Below are positions 27,400 to 47,256 of a DNA stretch of 64,000 bases, one piece after another (within the stretch, counting starts at the first letter, position 1; each line of letters begins with the position of its first letter). Under the pieces are notes generated by a model, which did not search any database, had not been told where the DNA came from, and saw only the letters and a program-made list of their open reading frames with translations. Made by a program: the position numbers and the translations under genes. Source of the DNA: Dehalococcoidia bacterium (GTDB lineage Bacteria > Chloroflexota > Dehalococcoidia > Plut-88900); NCBI GenBank assembly GCA_965197645.1, contig OZ240219.1, forward strand, positions 64,001 to 128,000, given 5' to 3'.

Positions 27400-28764
27400 A
27401 TGACCCAGAGCGATTACCGCAGCCTACCTAGCGTGGACGCGGTCCTGTCCCACCCAACCACCCGGGAGCTGGTGAAGACCTATTCGCACCAGGCATTGGC
27501 AGACCTGGCCCGCGACCAGTTGACCGACGCTCGAAAGGCGATAGGGGCAGGAGGAACGTGTCCTTCTCTGGAGACCGTGGTGGACACCATATACAACAAG
27601 GCCGTTGAACGGTGGCAGCTTAGACCCTCGAAGGTGATCAACGCCACCGGGGTGATCATCCACACCAACATGGGCCGAGCACCGCTCAGCGTCGAGGCCT
27701 GCCGGGCAATGCAGCTAGCGGCGGAAGGCTATTCCGACCTGGAGCTGGACATGAGGTCCGGGGAGCGTGGCTCCCGGTCCGGGACGATAGAGACGATGGT
27801 CTGCCAGCTGACCGGAGCAGAGGCGGCCCTGCCCGTCAACAACAACGCCTCGGCGCTGCTTCTAACCCTTAACGAGATGGCACAGAACAGAGATGTTGTG
27901 GTGAGCCGGGGGGAGGCGGTGGAGATCGGAGGTGGGTTCCGCATCCCGGACGTGTTGAAGGCCAGTGGAGCGGACCTGGTGGAGGTGGGCACCACCAATC
28001 GCACCTACGTCTCAGACTATGAAAACGCCATCTCCGACAGGACCGCCGCGTTTCTGAGCGTCCACACCAGTAATTTCAAGGTCGTGGGGTTCACCGAGAG
28101 TCCGAGCCTGGGCGAACTCGTAGAGCTTGGGGAGCGCCACGGAGTTCCCGTGCTGCACGACGTCGGTAGCGGGTGTCTGCTGGACACGACACGGTTCGGA
28201 CTGTCGCCGGAACCCACGCCTCAGCAAGGGATCGACGCCGGAGTGGACCTGGTGCTGTTCTCGACGGACAAACTGCTGGGCGGACCCCAGGCGGGGATAG
28301 TCGCGGGCAAGAAGAAGCTGGTCGACAGGATCAGGAAACACCCGATAGCCCGAGCCGTAAGGTGCGACAAGCTTACCCTGGCATCGTTGAGCGCCACGTT
28401 GCTGCATTATGTCAGGGAAGAGGCCTTGGAGAAGGTGCCGGTCTGGATGATGATATCGATGCCGCTGGAGGAGATAGAAGCCAGGGCCGGGAAGTGGGCG
28501 GAGGGGATCGAAGGAGCAAGGGTGGTCGAGGGATTCTCTACCATCGGAGGAGGGAGCCTTCCCGGTGACACACTGCCAACCAAAGTGGTTGCCGTCACAC
28601 CTAAGAGAGGCCACGCGGTGAATGAGCTGGCCAAGAAGCTGCGCACCGGTGAAACGCCGGTCATGGGCCGGATAGAGGACGACCTACTGCTGCTGGACCC
28701 TCGCACTGTCATGCCCGATGAGGACGAGGCCCTGTCGCGGGTTCTCGGGCAGGCCCTCGCTTAA
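27400..28764 (+). CDS. selA: L-seryl-tRNA(Sec) selenium transferase
   Basis: LPSVD, VINATGVIIHTNMGRAP, VNNNA, SRGEAVEIGGGFRIPDV, EVGTTNRT, HTSNF, DKLLGGPQAG. Confidence 0.96.
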   Translation: MTQSDYRSLPSVDAVLSHPTTRELVKTYSHQALADLARDQLTDARKAIGAGGTCPSLETVVDTIYNKAVERWQLRPSKVINATGVIIHTNMGRAPLSVEACRAMQLAAEGYSDLELDMRSGERGSRSGTIETMVCQLTGAEAALPVNNNASALLLTLNEMAQNRDVVVSRGEAVEIGGGFRIPDVLKASGADLVEVGTTNRTYVSDYENAISDRTAAFLSVHTSNFKVVGFTESPSLGELVELGERHGVPVLHDVGSGCLLDTTRFGLSPEPTPQQGIDAGVDLVLFSTDKLLGGPQAGIVAGKKKLVDRIRKHPIARAVRCDKLTLASLSATLLHYVREEALEKVPVWMMISMPLEEIEARAGKWAEGIEGARVVEGFSTIGGGSLPGDTLPTKVVAVTPKRGHAVNELAKKLRTGETPVMGRIEDDLLLLDPRTVMPDEDEALSRVLGQALA

Positions 28765-38881: not shown

Positions 38882-39346
38882 ATGGCGGCAGCAACCATGT
38901 GCGGCGTGCACAAGCTGATCTCGGATGTGTCGGTGTTGGCGGAGAGCAAGGTGCTGATGGTCAGGTACGCCGACACCGAAAAGCACGATAACCAGCAGGG
39001 TTGGTTCCTGCCGGACACTCTGCTCTCGGACCTGGAGCATCCTGATGAGGCGGCCCGGAGAGTGCTGACGGATGATCTCGGGCTGGCCGAGCCTTCGGCT
39101 GAGCTAGGCGATATCGAGTCGTTCAAGGGAAACGATGGCACGTGGCACCTGGCCTTCCACTACACGGCAAAGCTGTACGGGCCAATCGAGCTACCGCCTA
39201 AGGACAAGGTAAGGGAGAGTAAGTGGTTCCCCCTGGACCGGCTACCGCCCAGATCGGAGGTGGCGCACCACGGATGGGCGCTGGGGGTGCTGAAGAGGAT
39301 CACCTCGGACTCGCTTGCGCTTGACGGGCGCGTTCTGGCAGAATAG
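38882..39346 (+). CDS. NUDIX hydrolase (degenerate Nudix box)
   Basis: GWFLPD...LEHPDEAARRVLTDDLG, WFPLDRLP. Confidence 0.7.
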   Translation: MAAATMCGVHKLISDVSVLAESKVLMVRYADTEKHDNQQGWFLPDTLLSDLEHPDEAARRVLTDDLGLAEPSAELGDIESFKGNDGTWHLAFHYTAKLYGPIELPPKDKVRESKWFPLDRLPPRSEVAHHGWALGVLKRITSDSLALDGRVLAE

Positions 39347-39356
39347 TCGGTAGAGT

Positions 39357-39430
39357 TGGGGAATCGTCTAGTGGTAGGACAACGGACTCTGGATCCGTAA
39401 GCCCTGGTTCGAATCCAGGTTCCCCAGCCA
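39357..39430 (+). tRNA. tRNA-Gln(CTG)
   Basis: Acceptor TGGGGAA/TTCCCCA, anticodon arm ACGGA-CTCTGGA-TCCGT, GGTTCGAATCC, encoded CCA. Confidence 0.96.
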
Positions 39431-39548
39431 ACTTTTTCTCAGATTTTTCAACTTACAAAGAGCCAGTAGCAATAGGAGTCAGCACTCGGTGACCAAGCTG
39501 TTTCGGCGCCTTGAGGCAACCGAGTCGAAAAGTACCTAGATCAGAGCT

Positions 39549-40826
39549 ATGACCAGCATGGAGACATCTCCCCGGAACCGGCTGGAGCGGTTCCTCCCGG
39601 CCCTGTTCCAACGGGACTACCGCGTGATGTGGTATGGGCACCTCTCCGGAGAATCGGCATCCTGGGCCATGGGCGCCGCCGAAGGCTGGCTCATCTTCAA
39701 TCTCACCGGCAGCAGCACCTGGGTGGGGGCCATATTCCTGGTGGCTATGCTTCCCTGGTTCGTGGTGCCGGTGATCGCCGGTTATCTGATCGATCGGTTC
39801 GTCCGGCGGGACATACTGGCATGGGCGTACGTGGTAAGCCTCCTGCACAGCTTTACCCTCGCATTTCTGGTCCTCACCGGTGCGATCCAGCCGTGGCACA
39901 TACTTCTCCTGGCCTTCATCAACGGCAGCTCCAGGGCCGTTCACATGGGCGCTATGGAAGCGCTGGCCGCCAATCTGGTGCCGGAGAAAACCCTGCCCAA
40001 CGCTTACATCCTGGTCAACGCTGGCTACTACGCCACCCGCCTGATCGGCCCCGGACTGATTGCGCCGATTGTGGACGAGATCGGCCTTGAGTGGATCTTC
40101 TTCGGCTGCACCGCCTTCTACGGGGTAGGCGTGTCCATGATCCTTATGATCCGCACCCGATCGACCGGAGTCGTTGAACACGGGAAGGGACTGCGTCACA
40201 ACGTGTTTACCGGTTTCGCGTACGTCTACGGGCACCCGGTGTTGCGCAGCATCATCCTCGTGGTGATGTTCCACTGAATACTGATAATGTCATTTGAATC
40301 GCTCGTGCCAGCGATTTCGGAAAACCAGCTAGACGCCGGGGGCGGCGGAGTGGCGTACATCAACATGATGGTCGGCCTGGGGGCCCTGTTGCTTTCCATC
40401 GCAGTACTCCCGATAAGAAGCCAAGCATTGATAGGACGGCTCTTCTTGATCTCTGCCGTAGTCAGCATCGTCGGCAATGTGATTCTTGCGCTGGCGCCCA
40501 CTCTTCTCATCGCCATGCTGGGAACAGTGGTGATAGGGATCTCCCATACCGGTTTTATGACTATGGCCACTATCATGATCCAGGTGATAGCTCCCGATAG
40601 CATGCGCGGGCGCATCACAGCCATCTATCTGATTCATGCCGGAGGCATCATGGGTTTTTCCTACTTCGCCAACGGGGTTCTCGCCGATATCTTCGACCCC
40701 AGCTGGGTACTCCTGGTGGGGAGCATGGCCTTTTTGGTTGTACTCATGGCCAGTGCCTTCATACGCACCCCGAGGCGTCTGTACCACGCCGGCATTTCCA
40801 CACAGGCGGGCATGGTTCCCAGCTAG
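39549..40826 (+). CDS. MFS transporter (DHA3/EntS-like) with in-frame TGA at codon 243; candidate selenoprotein, alternatively a nonsense pseudogene
   Basis: ORFs 39549-40277 and 40287-40826 are in the same frame; read-through gives 425 aa colinear with 427-aa paralog; TGA aligns to paralog Cys. Confidence 0.65.
40293..40321 (+). promoter_or_regulatory. Putative bacterial SECIS hairpin
   Basis: Stem AATCGCT/AGCGATT, loop CGTGCC, extendable with a bulged T; loop begins after a 26-nt spacer from the TGA. Confidence 0.55.
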
Positions 40827-41121: not shown

Positions 41122-42405
41122 ATGGCCTCAATAGCAGGAGCGAAAGAGCTAGCCCGGGGAAGGCTTTTCCCCGCCCTGACCCACTCCGATTTTCGGCGGA
41201 TGTGGTTTGCCGAAATCTCGGCGAACTCGGCATCGTGGGCGCTCATCACAGCGAAGGCGGTGCTGGTCCACGGACTGGCCGAGAACAATCCCAACGCCTG
41301 GACCGGGTTCGTGATCTTCGCGTCGATGATTCCCTACGTGTTCGTGCCGGTGCTGGGCGGACTGCTGGCGGACCGGTTCGTTAGAAAGAACCTGCTGGCG
41401 GTGGCCTATGCGGCCAACATACTGATCAACCTGCTTCTTGCCTTCCTGGTGCTCACCGATATGGTGCAGATCTGGCAGGTGGTGTTGATCTCCTTCGCCA
41501 CCGGAAGCGCCACAGCCATACAGTACGCGGCCGCTGAATCCCTTACGGCGAACCTGGTGCCCAAGAAGTACCTGATCAACGCCTACGCCCTGATCAATGC
41601 GGTGTTTCACTCGACGAGACTGATGGGGCCCGGGGCGATCGCGCCGCTGGTCGATCGGATGGAACCGGGCTGGATATTCCTGATGTGCGCCGGCGCCTTC
41701 ATGGTAGCGCTGCCTCTGGCGTTGAGCATAAAGACAATCTCGACCGGTGAGGTGGAGGAGGCTAAGAGCGTCCTCTACAACCTGGCCGCCGGGTTCAAGT
41801 ACACCTATTCGCACCCGATCATATGCAGCATCATCCTGCTGGTGCTGTTCCACTGCGCCCTCACCATGTCATTCGAATCGATGTTGCCTGCGATCTCCAA
41901 ATTCAGATTGGATGCCGGAGACAGCGGCGTATTCTACATGAGCATGATGGTGGGTGCTGGGGCGCTCGTGATCTCGTTGGGGATCGCTCCACTGCGGGGC
42001 GAGGGCCTTCGCGGACGGCTTTTCCTGTTGCTCGCATTGGGCAGCTCCCTCAGCCCCCTGATGCTGGCAGTTGCCCCCAACCTCGCCTTAGCCATGATAG
42101 GGACAACTGTAATGGGCGCCACCCAGGCCGGGTTCATGGTGATTTCGTCGACGATGATCCAGTCGGTGGTGTCGGATGCTGTACGGGGCCGGGTGACCAG
42201 CATCTACGTGATCCACGCCGGAGGAATCATGTCGTTTGCCATGCTCGGCTACGGACGTCTGACTGACTCCATCGATCCAGGATGGATTCTGAGCGTGGGC
42301 GGCCTGGCTTTCATGGCAATAATCCTGGGGAGCGTGTTAGTGACGACAATCCGGCGGCTGTACTGGGTTGGGGTGCCTATGCCCGTTGGCGGCGGCTCCG
42401 AGTAG
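41122..42405 (+). CDS. MFS transporter (DHA3/EntS-like), Cys-containing paralog
   Basis: GGLLADRF, ANLVP, TRLMGP, FHCALTMSFES, RGRVTSIY; about 12 TM. Confidence 0.9.
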   Translation: MASIAGAKELARGRLFPALTHSDFRRMWFAEISANSASWALITAKAVLVHGLAENNPNAWTGFVIFASMIPYVFVPVLGGLLADRFVRKNLLAVAYAANILINLLLAFLVLTDMVQIWQVVLISFATGSATAIQYAAAESLTANLVPKKYLINAYALINAVFHSTRLMGPGAIAPLVDRMEPGWIFLMCAGAFMVALPLALSIKTISTGEVEEAKSVLYNLAAGFKYTYSHPIICSIILLVLFHCALTMSFESMLPAISKFRLDAGDSGVFYMSMMVGAGALVISLGIAPLRGEGLRGRLFLLLALGSSLSPLMLAVAPNLALAMIGTTVMGATQAGFMVISSTMIQSVVSDAVRGRVTSIYVIHAGGIMSFAMLGYGRLTDSIDPGWILSVGGLAFMAIILGSVLVTTIRRLYWVGVPMPVGGGSE

Positions 42406-43605: not shown

Positions 43606-43714
43606 AACCTCCCGAGAATTGTTAACACCCTCTTAAATACGGGTCGTCCTTCCGGTGCTGGAAGGACGACCCGTATATGTCTTGAGGAATTGTATACTTA
43701 CCCTTGATCCTGAT

Positions 43715-44554
43715 ATGTCGACTGCTTCGGATCGGATAGAAACGGCACGGGCCGCCTACGAGGAGCTGAGGAGCTTCCTGGATGGGATGCCGCCTCTCCG
43801 CTGGAGCAAGACGAGCATGTGCAAAGGCTGGGAGGTGCGGGACGTAGTCGCTCATCTGGTACACGCCCTGAAATATCAGGCCAAGATGGTGCAGCTCGGT
43901 GTGAAGGGCGTGCCGAGACCGGCGGACATCTTCGAGGGGGTCACCCAGGAGATGAGGACCCGGGCCATCGCCCGGGAAGCTCGCCTCCAGAGTGAGAAGC
44001 TGGCAGACCAGCTGCTGCCGGCCTTCACCAACGGGTATCGCGAGATTTTCGATCTGTTCTCGTCGCTGACGGATGAGGAGCTGAACAAGAGGACCTTCCA
44101 TGCCATCGGGCCGGGAGGCGTGGTGAAGGTGAGAACTTATATCGATCTGGTCATCCTGGAGACGACCCTGCATAGCTGGGATATCCGGTACGCGCTGGAC
44201 CCATCGGCTAGGTTGACGCCGCCGAGTGTGCCCGTGCTTATGGGATATGCCTCGGCTTGGCTGCGGCGGACCCTACACCCGGCCGCGAGGAACGGGGAAG
44301 CGCTTAGATACCGGCTCAGGGTTGGTGATTGGCCGGAGACGATATCGGACATCCTGGTCCAGGGAGATGACTTCAGTCGCGTGGAGCCGGTCAGTCCGGA
44401 GGTCACGGCCACCCTTACATGTGACGTGGACAGCTTCCTGTTGCTCCACTTCGGGAGATTCGGGTTTCTACAGGCCATCGAGTCGGGTCGATTGGAGGCG
44501 GAAGGCGACGTCGAAGCCGTTGGGTTGCTGGACGCCTGGACACGGCCGGTCTGA
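43715..44554 (+). CDS. MDMPI/DinB-like (maleylpyruvate isomerase family) protein
   Basis: CKGWEVRDVVAHL, ETTLHSWDIR, SCP2-like C-terminus (GRLEAEGD). Confidence 0.85.
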   Translation: MSTASDRIETARAAYEELRSFLDGMPPLRWSKTSMCKGWEVRDVVAHLVHALKYQAKMVQLGVKGVPRPADIFEGVTQEMRTRAIAREARLQSEKLADQLLPAFTNGYREIFDLFSSLTDEELNKRTFHAIGPGGVVKVRTYIDLVILETTLHSWDIRYALDPSARLTPPSVPVLMGYASAWLRRTLHPAARNGEALRYRLRVGDWPETISDILVQGDDFSRVEPVSPEVTATLTCDVDSFLLLHFGRFGFLQAIESGRLEAEGDVEAVGLLDAWTRPV

Positions 44555-44640: not shown

Positions 44641-44717
44641 GGCGCGTTCGTCTAGCGGCCCAGGACACCGCCCTCTCAAGGCGGAGATCGCGGGTTCGAA
44701 TCCCGCACGCGCTACCA
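44641..44717 (+). tRNA. tRNA-Glu(CTC)
   Basis: Acceptor GGCGCGT/ACGCGCT, anticodon arm CCGCC-CTCTCAA-GGCGG, GGTTCGAATCC, CCA. Confidence 0.96.
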
Positions 44718-44767: not shown

Positions 44768-44827
44768 ACTATCCCCCACGCTGTCCTATAATGGGGCTGC
44801 TTGAGCTTTACTACGCTAGGAGGAGAT

Positions 44828-45628
44828 ATGGCTACTACCCACGAGCGGATGCAAAAGGGCGAAGAGACGATGGAGGAGCTGAGTGGCGGCACTCGAAAGG
44901 CGGCGGGGTTGCCTCAATACGAGGTGGCGCCCGACATGGGCCAGTGGGTCACCGCCAGTCTATTCGGCGACATATGGGGTCGGCCCGACCTTCCCAAGAA
45001 GATCAGAAGTTTCGCCAGCATGTCCGTGCTAACGGTTACGGGCAAGGAGGCGCAACTCAAGGGCCACGTGAACTTCGCGCTGAACATCGGCTGGAGCAAG
45101 GAGGAGATATCGGAGCTGTTCTACCACCTGGTGCTCTACGGAGGACTTCCCTCGGCGCTCAACGCACTGGGAGTGGCCAGGGATGTGTTCAAAGACAGGG
45201 GACTCCTCGATCAGCCCATGGAGCCGACGGAAGGTACCGAGGCGACCTTCGAGGAGAGATACGCCAAGGGCATCAAGGTGATAGCCGAGATGTCGGCTAC
45301 GGATGCTACGGAATTCTCCATGGGCGACGACGTGGCGATGGTACACGGCATGGAGGACCACATCATATCGAGCCTTTTCGGCGACGTATGGAGTCGGGAC
45401 GTGCTGCCGAAGAAGGTCCGGAGTATCGCCACCATGTCGGCGTTGACAGCGCTGGGAAAGGAACCTCAGCTGGAGGCCCACCTCAACTGGGGGCTGAACA
45501 TCGGCTGGACCAAAGAGGAGATATCGGAGCTGTTCTTCCACCTGGCGTTCTACTGTGGTCTGCCGGCCGTGCTCAACGGACTGAGGGTAGCCAGAGGAGT
45601 GTTCAAGGACCGGGGGCTGGTCTCCTGA
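44828..45628 (+). CDS. Carboxymuconolactone decarboxylase family protein with two tandem CMD domains
   Basis: Repeated FGD.W.R..LPKK.RS...H.N..LNIGW.KEEISELF.HL..Y.GLP; ATG after AGGAGG. Confidence 0.88.
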   Translation: MATTHERMQKGEETMEELSGGTRKAAGLPQYEVAPDMGQWVTASLFGDIWGRPDLPKKIRSFASMSVLTVTGKEAQLKGHVNFALNIGWSKEEISELFYHLVLYGGLPSALNALGVARDVFKDRGLLDQPMEPTEGTEATFEERYAKGIKVIAEMSATDATEFSMGDDVAMVHGMEDHIISSLFGDVWSRDVLPKKVRSIATMSALTALGKEPQLEAHLNWGLNIGWTKEEISELFFHLAFYCGLPAVLNGLRVARGVFKDRGLVS

Positions 45629-45660
45629 GGGCCTGCGCCCCACGATATAGGAGGGGAGAG

Positions 45661-47256
45661 ATGCAGTATTTCAAGCGCCGGCCGCCGGTATATGGTCGGA
45701 ACGGGATGGTGGCCACCAGCGAGACCCAGGCCGCTATGGCCGGACTCCAGGTCCTGAGGGATGGAGGCAATGCCGTGGATGCGGCGGTAGCCACCTCGGC
45801 CGCGCTCAGCGTTACGGAACCGATGTCGACGGGGATTGGCGGCGACCTTTTCGCCCTGGTGTGGTCGGCCAAGGACCGGAAGGTCTACGCCCTGAACGGC
45901 AGCGGCCGAGCTCCCAAGGGGGCATCTCTGGAGGAGCTGCGCTCCAAAGGGCATAGCCAGATTCCCGGCCACAGCGCCTACGCCGTATCGGTCCCTGGCG
46001 TAGTGGACGGCTGGCGGACCCTGTTGAAGGGCCACGGCTCGAAACGGCTCTCCGAGCTGATGAAACCGGCAATAAAGTACGCCGAAGAGGGGTTCGTGGT
46101 CTCGGAGCAGATAGGCCGCTATTGGGCCAACACCGAGGCGAAGCTGGCCCAGTATCCATCGGGTTCCGAACTGCTGCTAAACGGCCGGGCGCCAAGGGCC
46201 GGCGAGGTGATGAAGCTGCCCGAGCTGGCAGCCACGTTAAAGGCTATAGCCCGCAGCGGGCCCAAGGCGTTCTACCAGGGCAAGCTGGCCAAGAAGATAG
46301 CCGGGTACGTACAAGAGCACGGCGGGTGGCTGGACACCTCGGACCTGTCTCGGCACACTTCCACCTGGGACGAACCGATCTCGACGGACTACCGTGGGGT
46401 CACCTGCTGGCAGTGCCCGCCCAACGGTCAGGGGATCGCTGCCCTGATGGCCCTCAACATCGCCGAAGGGTTCGATATTCGAGGAATGGGATTTCAGAGC
46501 GTCGATACCTACCACCATCTCATCGAGTCTATGCAGCTGGCATTCCAAGACGCCCTCGACCACGTAGCCGACCCGAGCAAAGCCGAGGTCCCCATCCGAC
46601 GGCTGCTGTCCCAGGAACATTCCGCCGAGAGGCGTAGCGCCGTCGGCTACGATCGGGTGCTATCCAGGTCGGACGCAGGCAGGGTGATGGTCCGGGCCGA
46701 TACCGCTTACCTGACGTGCGTCGACGGCAAGGGCAACGCCTGCTCTTTCATCAACAGCCTGTACGAGTCCTTCGGCACAGGCCTGGTGGTACCGGGGACG
46801 GGGATTGCGCTGCAGAACCGGGCATCGCTGTTCTCGTTGGACCCGGACCATCCCAACGCCCTGGCCCCGGACAAGAGGCCCTTTCACACGATAATTCCGG
46901 GCATGGCCACTAGAGGCAACGAGCTGTGGCTATCCTACGGAGTGATGGGCGGTTTCCAGCAACCCCAGGGCCACCTCCAGGTGCTGGCGAACATGGTGGA
47001 CTTCGATCTAGACCCACAGGCCGCACTGGACGCCCTGCGGTTCAGCATTCAGCTTGGGGACGGCGTAGCAATAGAGGCCGAAGTGCCATCGTCTACGATG
47101 GAGGAGCTGCGAAGACGGGGCCACGCCATCATCCCGGTGGACGACCCAACGAGAGGACTGTTCGGCGGAGGCCAGATCATCGAGAGAGATGCGGACTCAG
47201 GAGTCCTACGCGGGGGCACGGAACCTCGCAAGGACGGCCTGGCGGTAGGGTGGTAG
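45661..47256 (+). CDS. ggt: Gamma-glutamyltransferase family protein
   Basis: GGNAVDAAVA, EPMSTGIGGD, PPNGQG, DTAY (catalytic Thr), KRPFHTIIPG, GVMGG, PRKDG; ATG 45661 after AGGAGG. Confidence 0.92.
   Translation: MQYFKRRPPVYGRNGMVATSETQAAMAGLQVLRDGGNAVDAAVATSAALSVTEPMSTGIGGDLFALVWSAKDRKVYALNGSGRAPKGASLEELRSKGHSQIPGHSAYAVSVPGVVDGWRTLLKGHGSKRLSELMKPAIKYAEEGFVVSEQIGRYWANTEAKLAQYPSGSELLLNGRAPRAGEVMKLPELAATLKAIARSGPKAFYQGKLAKKIAGYVQEHGGWLDTSDLSRHTSTWDEPISTDYRGVTCWQCPPNGQGIAALMALNIAEGFDIRGMGFQSVDTYHHLIESMQLAFQDALDHVADPSKAEVPIRRLLSQEHSAERRSAVGYDRVLSRSDAGRVMVRADTAYLTCVDGKGNACSFINSLYESFGTGLVVPGTGIALQNRASLFSLDPDHPNALAPDKRPFHTIIPGMATRGNELWLSYGVMGGFQQPQGHLQVLANMVDFDLDPQAALDALRFSIQLGDGVAIEAEVPSSTMEELRRRGHAIIPVDDPTRGLFGGGQIIERDADSGVLRGGTEPRKDGLAVGW

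Follow-up and report, generated by a model that had tools for sequence, protein, structure and literature searches.

Does the UGA in the middle of a predicted membrane transporter gene of a marine Dehalococcoidia bacterium end one truncated protein and precede another, or is it read as selenocysteine (Sec) within a single full-length carrier? The question is raised by positions 39549..40826 of the + strand of a 64,000-nucleotide stretch of contig OZ240219.1 (this whole stretch is referred to below as the window), where the list of open reading frames (ORFs) gives two frames, 39549..40277 (242 aa) and 40287..40826 (179 aa), that lie in the same frame. An earlier reading of the letters alone, the original prediction, took them for the two halves of one major facilitator superfamily (MFS) transporter, parted only by TGA 40275-40277, free of any other stop or frameshift, and colinear over 425 aa with a neighbouring paralog that has Cys in place of the stop, and on each of these points we find the same. 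The letters at 40269-40286 are TTC CAC TGA ATA CTG ATA, which puts the in-frame UGA, the proposed Sec codon 243 (40275..40277, + strand), directly 3' of the His242 codon CAC (40272-40274). Translation of 39549-40826 with TGA as Sec (U) yields 425 aa, U243 standing in IILVVMFH-U-ILIMSFES, without a further stop before the gene's own stop codon, TAG, at 40824-40826 on the + strand; the tandem paralog (41122..42405, + strand, 427 aa) is 47% identical to this read-through protein over 410 residues, and its Cys245 stands opposite U243. We consider that the pair of half-ORFs is one gene for a 12-helix MFS transporter (39549..40826, + strand; Pfam MFS_3/MFS_1; 425 aa across one UGA), with UGA codon 243 decoded as selenocysteine, at a probability of roughly 0.87.

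The evidence that carries this reading begins with the recurrence of the TGA, whose alternation with Cys codons among relatives the original prediction had named as a check. A six-frame search that read through stops in 41 related genomes, the window's own included, found a close ortholog in six of them (72-100% identical), each with exactly one internal TGA; the five that come from other species match the window gene at 72-74% identity. The TGA occupies column 245 of the 427-column alignment in 6/6, none of the six has any other stop or a frameshift, and the next relatives have TGC or TGT at this codon, so that this alternation was indeed observed. The same six genomes are the holders of the TGA gene among the 12 of the order, and among 401 sampled genomes of the class they alone gave matches at E<=1e-120, all with one TGA. 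A database query with the N-terminal half returned P0123 (98% identical), P0124 (86%), P0125 (74%, with 109 member sequences) and P0126 (75%), four clusters of proteins 231-268 aa long whose last residues are exactly ...FH; in each of them gene callers have cut a gene of this kind at this codon. Moreover, a Logan contig from run X1, a possible source sample, has 0 differences from the window over 39300-40311; given this identity and the presence of TGA in the same column of five other species' assemblies, the TGA is not a one-off error. For runs X3 and X4, whose contigs also reach across the TGA region, the differences listed (40 of 68) extend to 40166. The transporter gene is accordingly mis-annotated as two truncated proteins, and N-terminal halves ending at FH have been deposited as separate database proteins. 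Two weaker one-TGA matches also came out of the 41-genome search (G033:C61 and G031:C11); the former (L048) was rejected as a TGA-bearing gene, an uninterrupted 441-aa ORF being present there and the TGA being taken to lie outside the gene.

The half of the gene beyond the UGA is under purifying selection. Ratios of nonsynonymous to synonymous substitution (dN/dS), estimated by the Nei-Gojobori method for the window gene against the five orthologs from other species, were 0.13-0.17 for the N-terminal half and 0.15-0.17 for the C-terminal half, the latter changing to 0.13-0.16 when the 16 codons after the UGA were left out, with dS at 1.1-1.6 for the two halves and at 1.1-1.9 over all these comparisons. 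The values of 0.15-0.17 refer to the deepest relatives; among closer pairs the C-terminal half gave 0.08-0.25. The low dN/dS of this half rules out a pseudogene.

The genome encodes the apparatus that Sec decoding requires, selA, selB, selC and selD all being found by profile and tRNA matches. The whole window lies inside one 3.21-Mb contig that also carries tRNA-Sec, selA, selB and selD. The selA gene (selenocysteine synthase), which had been placed about 11 kb upstream of the transporter gene, lies about 10.8 kb upstream, within the window (ORF 27400..28764, + strand; match 27415-28746 to TIGR00474, 547.7 bits against a cut-off of 267.9). Outside the window are selB (G000:C1:1725995-1727848, + strand; 346.8 bits against 242.25), selD (G000:C1:941844-942767, + strand; 379.7 bits against 125) and a tRNA-Sec with anticodon TCA (G000:C1:214537-214631, - strand). 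Across the order, selB scores above its cut-off in 12/12 genomes and tRNA-Sec was detected in 10/12, the two misses being 80% and 87% complete and the 87%-complete genome being one of the TGA-gene holders. On these counts every holder belongs to a Sec-using lineage, and since the whole order is Sec-positive the machinery does not discriminate among its members. On every point that the original prediction had named as able to refute it, the outcome favoured Sec. The BSepDB paper (PMC13326102), in its main text, places two Dehalococcoidia metagenome-assembled genomes (MAGs) among the ten most selenoprotein-rich bacteria, so frequent replacement of Cys by Sec in this lineage is unsurprising in itself.

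We also screened the genome for other TGA codons that align with Cys in paralogs. A BLAST comparison of 4592 TGA windows against 14868 ORFs aligned Cys in 51 (E<=1e-10); most of these seem to pair repeated genes (Arg/Gly/Ser-rich) off frame, and the protein-like ones come down to a handful, namely the MFS gene, two peroxiredoxin-like (Prx-like) genes and one rhodanese-like gene, with others of doubtful quality. The rhodanese-like candidate reads ...VATY-U-QAGIR... and the two peroxiredoxin-like ones ...DFTYG-U-TRE... and ...DFTSG-U-TNE...; the TGAs of these candidates, all outside the window, are at G000:C1 284208 on the + strand and at about 1309157 and about 423119 on the - strand (+ coordinates). 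The selD gene is itself a selenoprotein gene, with one in-frame TGA (G000:C1:941874) in the context HCAG-U-ASK.

Decoding of UGA as Sec in bacteria calls for a selenocysteine insertion sequence (SECIS), and a putative bacterial SECIS (bSECIS) hairpin occupies 40293..40321 on the + strand, starting 15 nt 3' of the UGA and inside the coding sequence. Its lower stem of 6 bp and upper stem of 5 bp (UCGCU/AGCGA) are separated by a bulged U, and the apical loop is CGUGCC (40304-40309), in which the G-U derives from the Val253 codon GUG (40305..40307, + strand). The consensus given in the Fig. 2 legend of PMC13188914 specifies a loop of 3-9 nt, an upper stem of 4-16 bp, a G within the first two loop positions that is usually followed by G or U, a UGA-to-loop distance of 16-37 nt and a minimum free energy of -7.5 kcal/mol or below; with a 6-nt loop whose second and third nucleotides are G and U, an upper stem of 5 bp, a spacing of 26 nt and -8.3 kcal/mol for the hairpin alone, the element falls within all four criteria of that legend. 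The TGA of selD, used as a control, is accepted by the script as well (spacing 27, loop GUA, 8 bp, -11.6 kcal/mol). At gathering thresholds, Rfam found only two tRNAs in the window and gave no family for the hairpin.

The hairpin coincides with a block of 35 nt (40285..40319, + strand) that is invariant at the nucleotide level, synonymous sites included, in each of the six Sec forms. Among the invariant columns in the codon alignment of these six it is the longest run, starting 7 nt after the TGA; the second longest, which includes the TGA, is 12 nt and the remaining runs are 9 nt or shorter. At the codon level the run spans 11 columns (249-259), with 117 of the 427 columns identical overall, and a run of this length was matched in 4 of 20000 column shuffles, or in 1 of 5000 when the three deep lineages alone were used. 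In seven Cys orthologs the third positions of the MSFESLLPAIS codons are all variable apart from those of ATG and GAA, and the freeze is therefore not explained by amino-acid constraint. The block also leaves a trace in metagenome assemblies, which came as an unlooked-for confirmation of the freeze: Logan contigs from three studies end or begin at 40297-40311, the bin 40276-40336 shows a rise in summed depth of about 7- to 20-fold, and loose contig ends continue as the ortholog of another genus. This pattern indicates that co-occurring species have the 35-nt block verbatim in common, and a frozen SECIS can in this way fragment metagenome assemblies.

The residue that the UGA would replace is a Cys in the homologs. 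His-Cys stands at the aligned positions in 120/120 full-length database homologs (57-80% identical) and in 21/21 paralogs of the order (41-52% identical); in distant homologs (23-38% identical) it is found in 6/20, the other 14 having mostly Pro-[Val/Ser/Thr]. Public Cys orthologs, annotated as 'MFS transporter' of SAR202 cluster bacterium or Dehalococcoidia bacterium, resemble the Sec form in length and in the FHCxLxMSFES motif, with 57-80% identity, and differ from it in having TGC or TGT, no frozen 35-nt block, and Leu253 in place of Val253. Likewise, Cys orthologs from marine metagenomes and MAGs (60-68% identical) read FHC[T/V]LVMS with TGC or TGT; their synonymous sites vary, and the hairpin is absent from most of them.

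In a maximum-likelihood tree the six Sec forms and one Cys protein, P0003 (80% identical to the window protein), make up one clade with support of 0.965, nested within Cys forms, and we infer from this branching a single gain of Sec from Cys within one Dehalococcoidia order. Residue 253 is Val in 6/6 Sec forms and Leu in 118/120 Cys database homologs and 21/21 paralogs, P0003 being the only Cys homolog with Val253. This Val is apparently a residue imposed by the SECIS, and the P0003 lineage is a probable Sec-to-Cys revertant that has retained it. In L070, the closest outgroup for which DNA is available, part of the hairpin is already formed (UCGCUG...CGGCGA) because the Ser-Leu and Ala-Ile codons are complementary, so the site was predisposed to evolve a SECIS; the locus is a compact example of SECIS evolution inside coding sequence. 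A genome of genus g4 (G008) without the full Sec-form gene has, at G008:C1:1340438-1340833, a 132-residue fragment, 58% identical to residues 293-424 and with an internal TAG, which may be a remnant of gene loss.

Read through, the protein has the make-up of an MFS transporter. It scores 114.6 bits against Pfam MFS_3 (PF05977; cut-off 27) and 83.5 against MFS_1 (PF07690; cut-off 33.4), MFS_3, MFS_1 and Sugar_tr being the only families returned; the tandem paralog is also an MFS transporter. An AlphaFold2 model built from a 50-sequence alignment (predicted local distance difference test score, pLDDT, 90.9; predicted template modelling score, pTM, 0.89) has twelve long transmembrane (TM) helices, in two bundles of six, and a linker helix at 215-228. 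TM7 runs as a helix over 230-245, breaks at 246 and resumes over 247-260, with U243 in mid-membrane just before the break and next to His242, in keeping with the placement of Sec beside a His in TM7 that had been foreseen.

Three other explanations of the interrupted frame have to be weighed against decoding as Sec. Given that a single TGC/TGT-to-TGA change would suffice, a nonsense mutation (leaving a pseudogene) or a sequencing or assembly error was the alternative named in the original prediction. Such an event would have to be repeated, since TGA stands in the assemblies of six species and, by implication, in four clusters of proteins (109 member sequences in one of them). The six genes are otherwise free of stops and frameshifts, and beyond the TGA dN/dS is near 0.15 with dS above 1. 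The TGA in six species and the dN/dS effectively refute this alternative, and we give it almost no credence. Purifying selection on both halves is predicted equally well if the MFS gene is genuinely split, its 242-aa N-terminal half ending at the UGA, its 179-aa C-terminal half starting at the ATG of Met247 (40287; TTG in other genera), and the halves assembling into one carrier. Gene callers did predict the FH-ending N-terminal halves as separate proteins, and the start codon at 40287, 12 nt after the TGA, is conserved in 6/6. The break would fall inside TM7 (230-245/247-260), however, and not in the inter-domain linker (residues 200-214 of the AlphaFold2 model); the stop aligns exactly with an invariant Cys; it is TGA in 6/6 and TAA or TAG in 0/6; the three codons between TGA and ATG keep both the frame and their hydrophobic character (ILI, TLI, TLV); and the 35-nt synonymous freeze and the SECIS-compliant hairpin would be without a role. 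No GGAGG-like motif precedes ATG 40287, and since none precedes the gene's own start either, this does not discriminate. A split gene is, on balance, very improbable.

Near-cognate suppression of UGA occurs in bacteria, and it is also conceivable that the UGA is read through without selenium, the hairpin or its context promoting insertion of Trp or Cys by a near-cognate tRNA, either always or when selenium is scarce. This would fit the conserved TGA, the selection on both halves and the conserved downstream structure. On the other side stand the Sec machinery in the holders tested (selB in 12/12 genomes of the order), the geometry of the hairpin, which fits a SelB-type SECIS as that of selD does, and the identity of the aligned residue in homologs, Cys being the standard partner of Sec. 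We regard selenium-free read-through as unparsimonious and very improbable.

Several observations nevertheless count against decoding as Sec, or fall short of what it might lead one to expect, in addition to the conserved ATG, from which a C-terminal half might be translated separately. The Sec forms all belong to one family-level clade of single origin, so that the six genomes count as some three to five independent lineages. The SECIS script also passes 142 of 3000 random genome TGA triplets (4.7%), and it fails the one rhodanese-like and the two Prx-like candidate genes; with random TGAs passing and three candidates failing, its sensitivity and specificity are both modest. Those three candidates, failing the strict script and offering no organism-specific consensus, were dropped as extra SECIS controls. 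The 66 nt after the UGA fold no better than shuffled sequences (z = -0.01), and thermodynamic stability alone consequently does not single out the hairpin; with the hairpin invariant in 6/6 sequences, its structure gains no proof from covariation. The gene falls well below the NCBIfam cut-offs for the EntS/DHA3 equivalogs (TIGR00900, 110.6 vs 319.6; EntS, NF007792, 70.9 vs 324). Its neighbourhood differs in all three genera, and we draw no functional inference from context. As for RNA, one 163-nt metatranscriptome contig (run X10, 'sponge metagenome') is identical to 40664-40826, the 3' end of the gene, and is possibly carried-over DNA; two further RNA runs of the study to which X10 belongs contain small shares of the gene's sampled words, and no weight is given to stretches of the gene that lack RNA cover. 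These data give a weak hint that the transporter gene is expressed and that the habitat is sponge-associated.

If UGA 243 is indeed read as Sec, what might the carrier do? A fold search of the Protein Data Bank (PDB) with the model gave 456 matches at E<=0.001, and the best 50 of the 456 are all MFS transporters, the best matches being VMAT2, NorA, MdfA and YajR at 11-18% identity. NorA and MdfA are among these top 50, and the drug:H+ antiporters NorA, MdfA and VMAT2 have the same 12-helix fold (query-normalised TM-score of 0.74 to VMAT2 8jtc). A profile compared with PDB sequences found NorA at E 1e-10, with ...lfhcvlvmSFESll... aligned to ...VLSFGLSAFETLY..., and here Glu250 (GAA, 40296..40298, + strand), a candidate proton-coupling carboxylate in the SFES motif of TM7, comes to lie opposite Glu222 in the AFET motif of NorA at low per-residue confidence. 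Glu222 and Asp307 of NorA are presumably protonation sites, as we gather from PDB titles (E222Q, D307N, 'protonated state'). Glu250 is kept in 6/6 Sec forms, 119/120 database homologs and 21/21 paralogs. TM1, 4, 7 and 10 line the MFS cavity, and it is on this general architecture that the description of TM7 as cavity-lining rests.

The likeness to these antiporters has limits: NorA has Leu-Ser where the SAR202/Dehalococcoidia subfamily has His-Cys/Sec, and the identity to NorA, MdfA and VMAT2 is 11-18%. With the EntS/DHA3-type MFS_3 proteins, which are efflux-type H+ antiporters, the read-through protein shares its best Pfam family, whereas its NCBIfam scores are far under the cut-offs and Pro-[Val/Ser/Thr] replaces His-Cys in the more distant MFS_3 relatives. 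From homology, the protein would be an H+-coupled antiporter of the DHA/EntS-like kind, acting in efflux.

The conserved TGA, the selection on both halves, the synonymous constraint on the SECIS-like hairpin, the Sec/Cys pairing, the machinery and the fold have been demonstrated here; Sec insertion, the direction of transport, the substrate and the role of the dyad are all points that we infer, and the following mechanism is proposed on that footing. The suggestion in the original prediction of a metal- or thiol-reactive or redox-gated transporter is of the same tentative kind. The SECIS hairpin within the coding sequence would recruit SelB with Sec-tRNA(Sec), and Sec would replace the Cys that is invariant in the motif F-H-C-x-L-x-M-S-F-E-S of this MFS subfamily, in the middle of the membrane in TM7. 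The Sec form would have arisen once from a Cys ancestor whose ESLLPAIS peptide already encoded half of the hairpin; a Leu-to-Val change (GUG) would have supplied the G-U of the loop, and the P0003 lineage would later have gone back to Cys. In the carrier itself, Glu250 may serve as the protonation site of TM7, like Glu222 of NorA, and the His242-Sec243 dyad, seven residues (two helical turns) before it, may form a selenolate/imidazole site whose substrate would be thiophilic (a soft metal ion or a metalloid, for example, or else a thiol-reactive compound). In a further-reaching version, a permanently ionised selenolate would bind a soft metal, a metalloid or a reactive species of sulfur or selenium and pass it on, or else Sec243 might itself take part in proton coupling.

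That this is the first MFS transport cycle to depend on selenium chemistry, with Sec243 and His242 working in the translocation pathway near a proton-coupling Glu250, we put forward tentatively, as a possibility with the odds somewhat against it. Were it true, the invariant His-Cys dyad of the larger SAR202/Dehalococcoidia subfamily (503 database proteins at E<=1e-20) would be an unrecognised substrate site. The conserved His-Cys/Sec-Glu constellation in TM7 is marked out as the candidate functional centre of an abundant, uncharacterised marine subfamily.

The recoding itself follows the canonical mechanism, and the novelty lies in the family of the host protein and in the location of Sec in mid-membrane. 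The main text of a 2026 review, PMC13188914, which tabulates prokaryotic selenoprotein families with their Pfam and NCBIfam identifiers, contains no occurrence of 'MFS', 'major facilitator', PF07690 or PF05977, and the same terms are lacking in the main texts of BSepDB (PMC13326102) and deep-Sep (PMC12013277); we found no MFS selenoprotein in the literature searched, which took in full-text queries and the main texts of these three sources. Bacterial selenoproteins known so far are overwhelmingly soluble redox enzymes. Those predicted in connection with transport are few, and the main text of PMC13188914 gives ABC components, P-type ATPases, YeeE and MerT-like proteins. The transport-related families named there are the mercuric transport protein, E1-E2 ATPase, YeeE/YedE, SaoX, SaoB, SaoP, SaoC and SO_0444, most of which are implicated in metal or metalloid handling.

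Like the window protein, several of these families, namely the thiosulfate transporter family YeeE/YedE (PF04143), the ABC permease SaoP, the Cu/Zn efflux protein SO_0444, the mercuric transport protein (MerT-like) and the E1-E2 cation ATPase, are membrane transport proteins with Sec in place of Cys, and they are likewise computational predictions from Sec/Cys pairs and SECIS elements; unlike it, none is an MFS secondary transporter as they are described in that text. Pfam and NCBIfam scans of the read-through protein gave MFS-type families only and no homology to these known Sec transport families. With Sec inside one of the membrane-spanning helices of an MFS carrier, selenium use would reach the largest family of secondary transporters.

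Around the gene, the upstream neighbours in the window are lspA, an rluD-like gene, gltX, a NUDIX gene and a tRNA-Gln, and the downstream neighbours are the Cys paralog, a DinB/MDMPI_N-family gene (43655-44554) and a gene for an 821-aa gamma-glutamyltranspeptidase (44791-47256), with a tRNA-Glu (44641-44717) between the last two. The DinB/MDMPI_N and gamma-glutamyltranspeptidase genes relate to low-molecular-weight thiol metabolism, and their linkage to the transporter gene is not conserved in other genera: the genus g4 ortholog has Peptidase_S49 and ABC_transp_aux genes as neighbours, and that of genus g3 an amidohydrolase and an integrase. The g3 ortholog lies 0.8 kb upstream of the phage-type integrase and an AlpA-like gene (L073 5034-6194, 6254-7159), and these neighbours, together with the unconserved context, suggest that the transporter gene sits in variable regions. 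The tRNA-Gln (CTG), at 39357-39430, is 118 nt upstream of the transporter gene, and metagenome depth there is 50- to 150-fold above that of its flanks because many organisms share the tRNA sequence.

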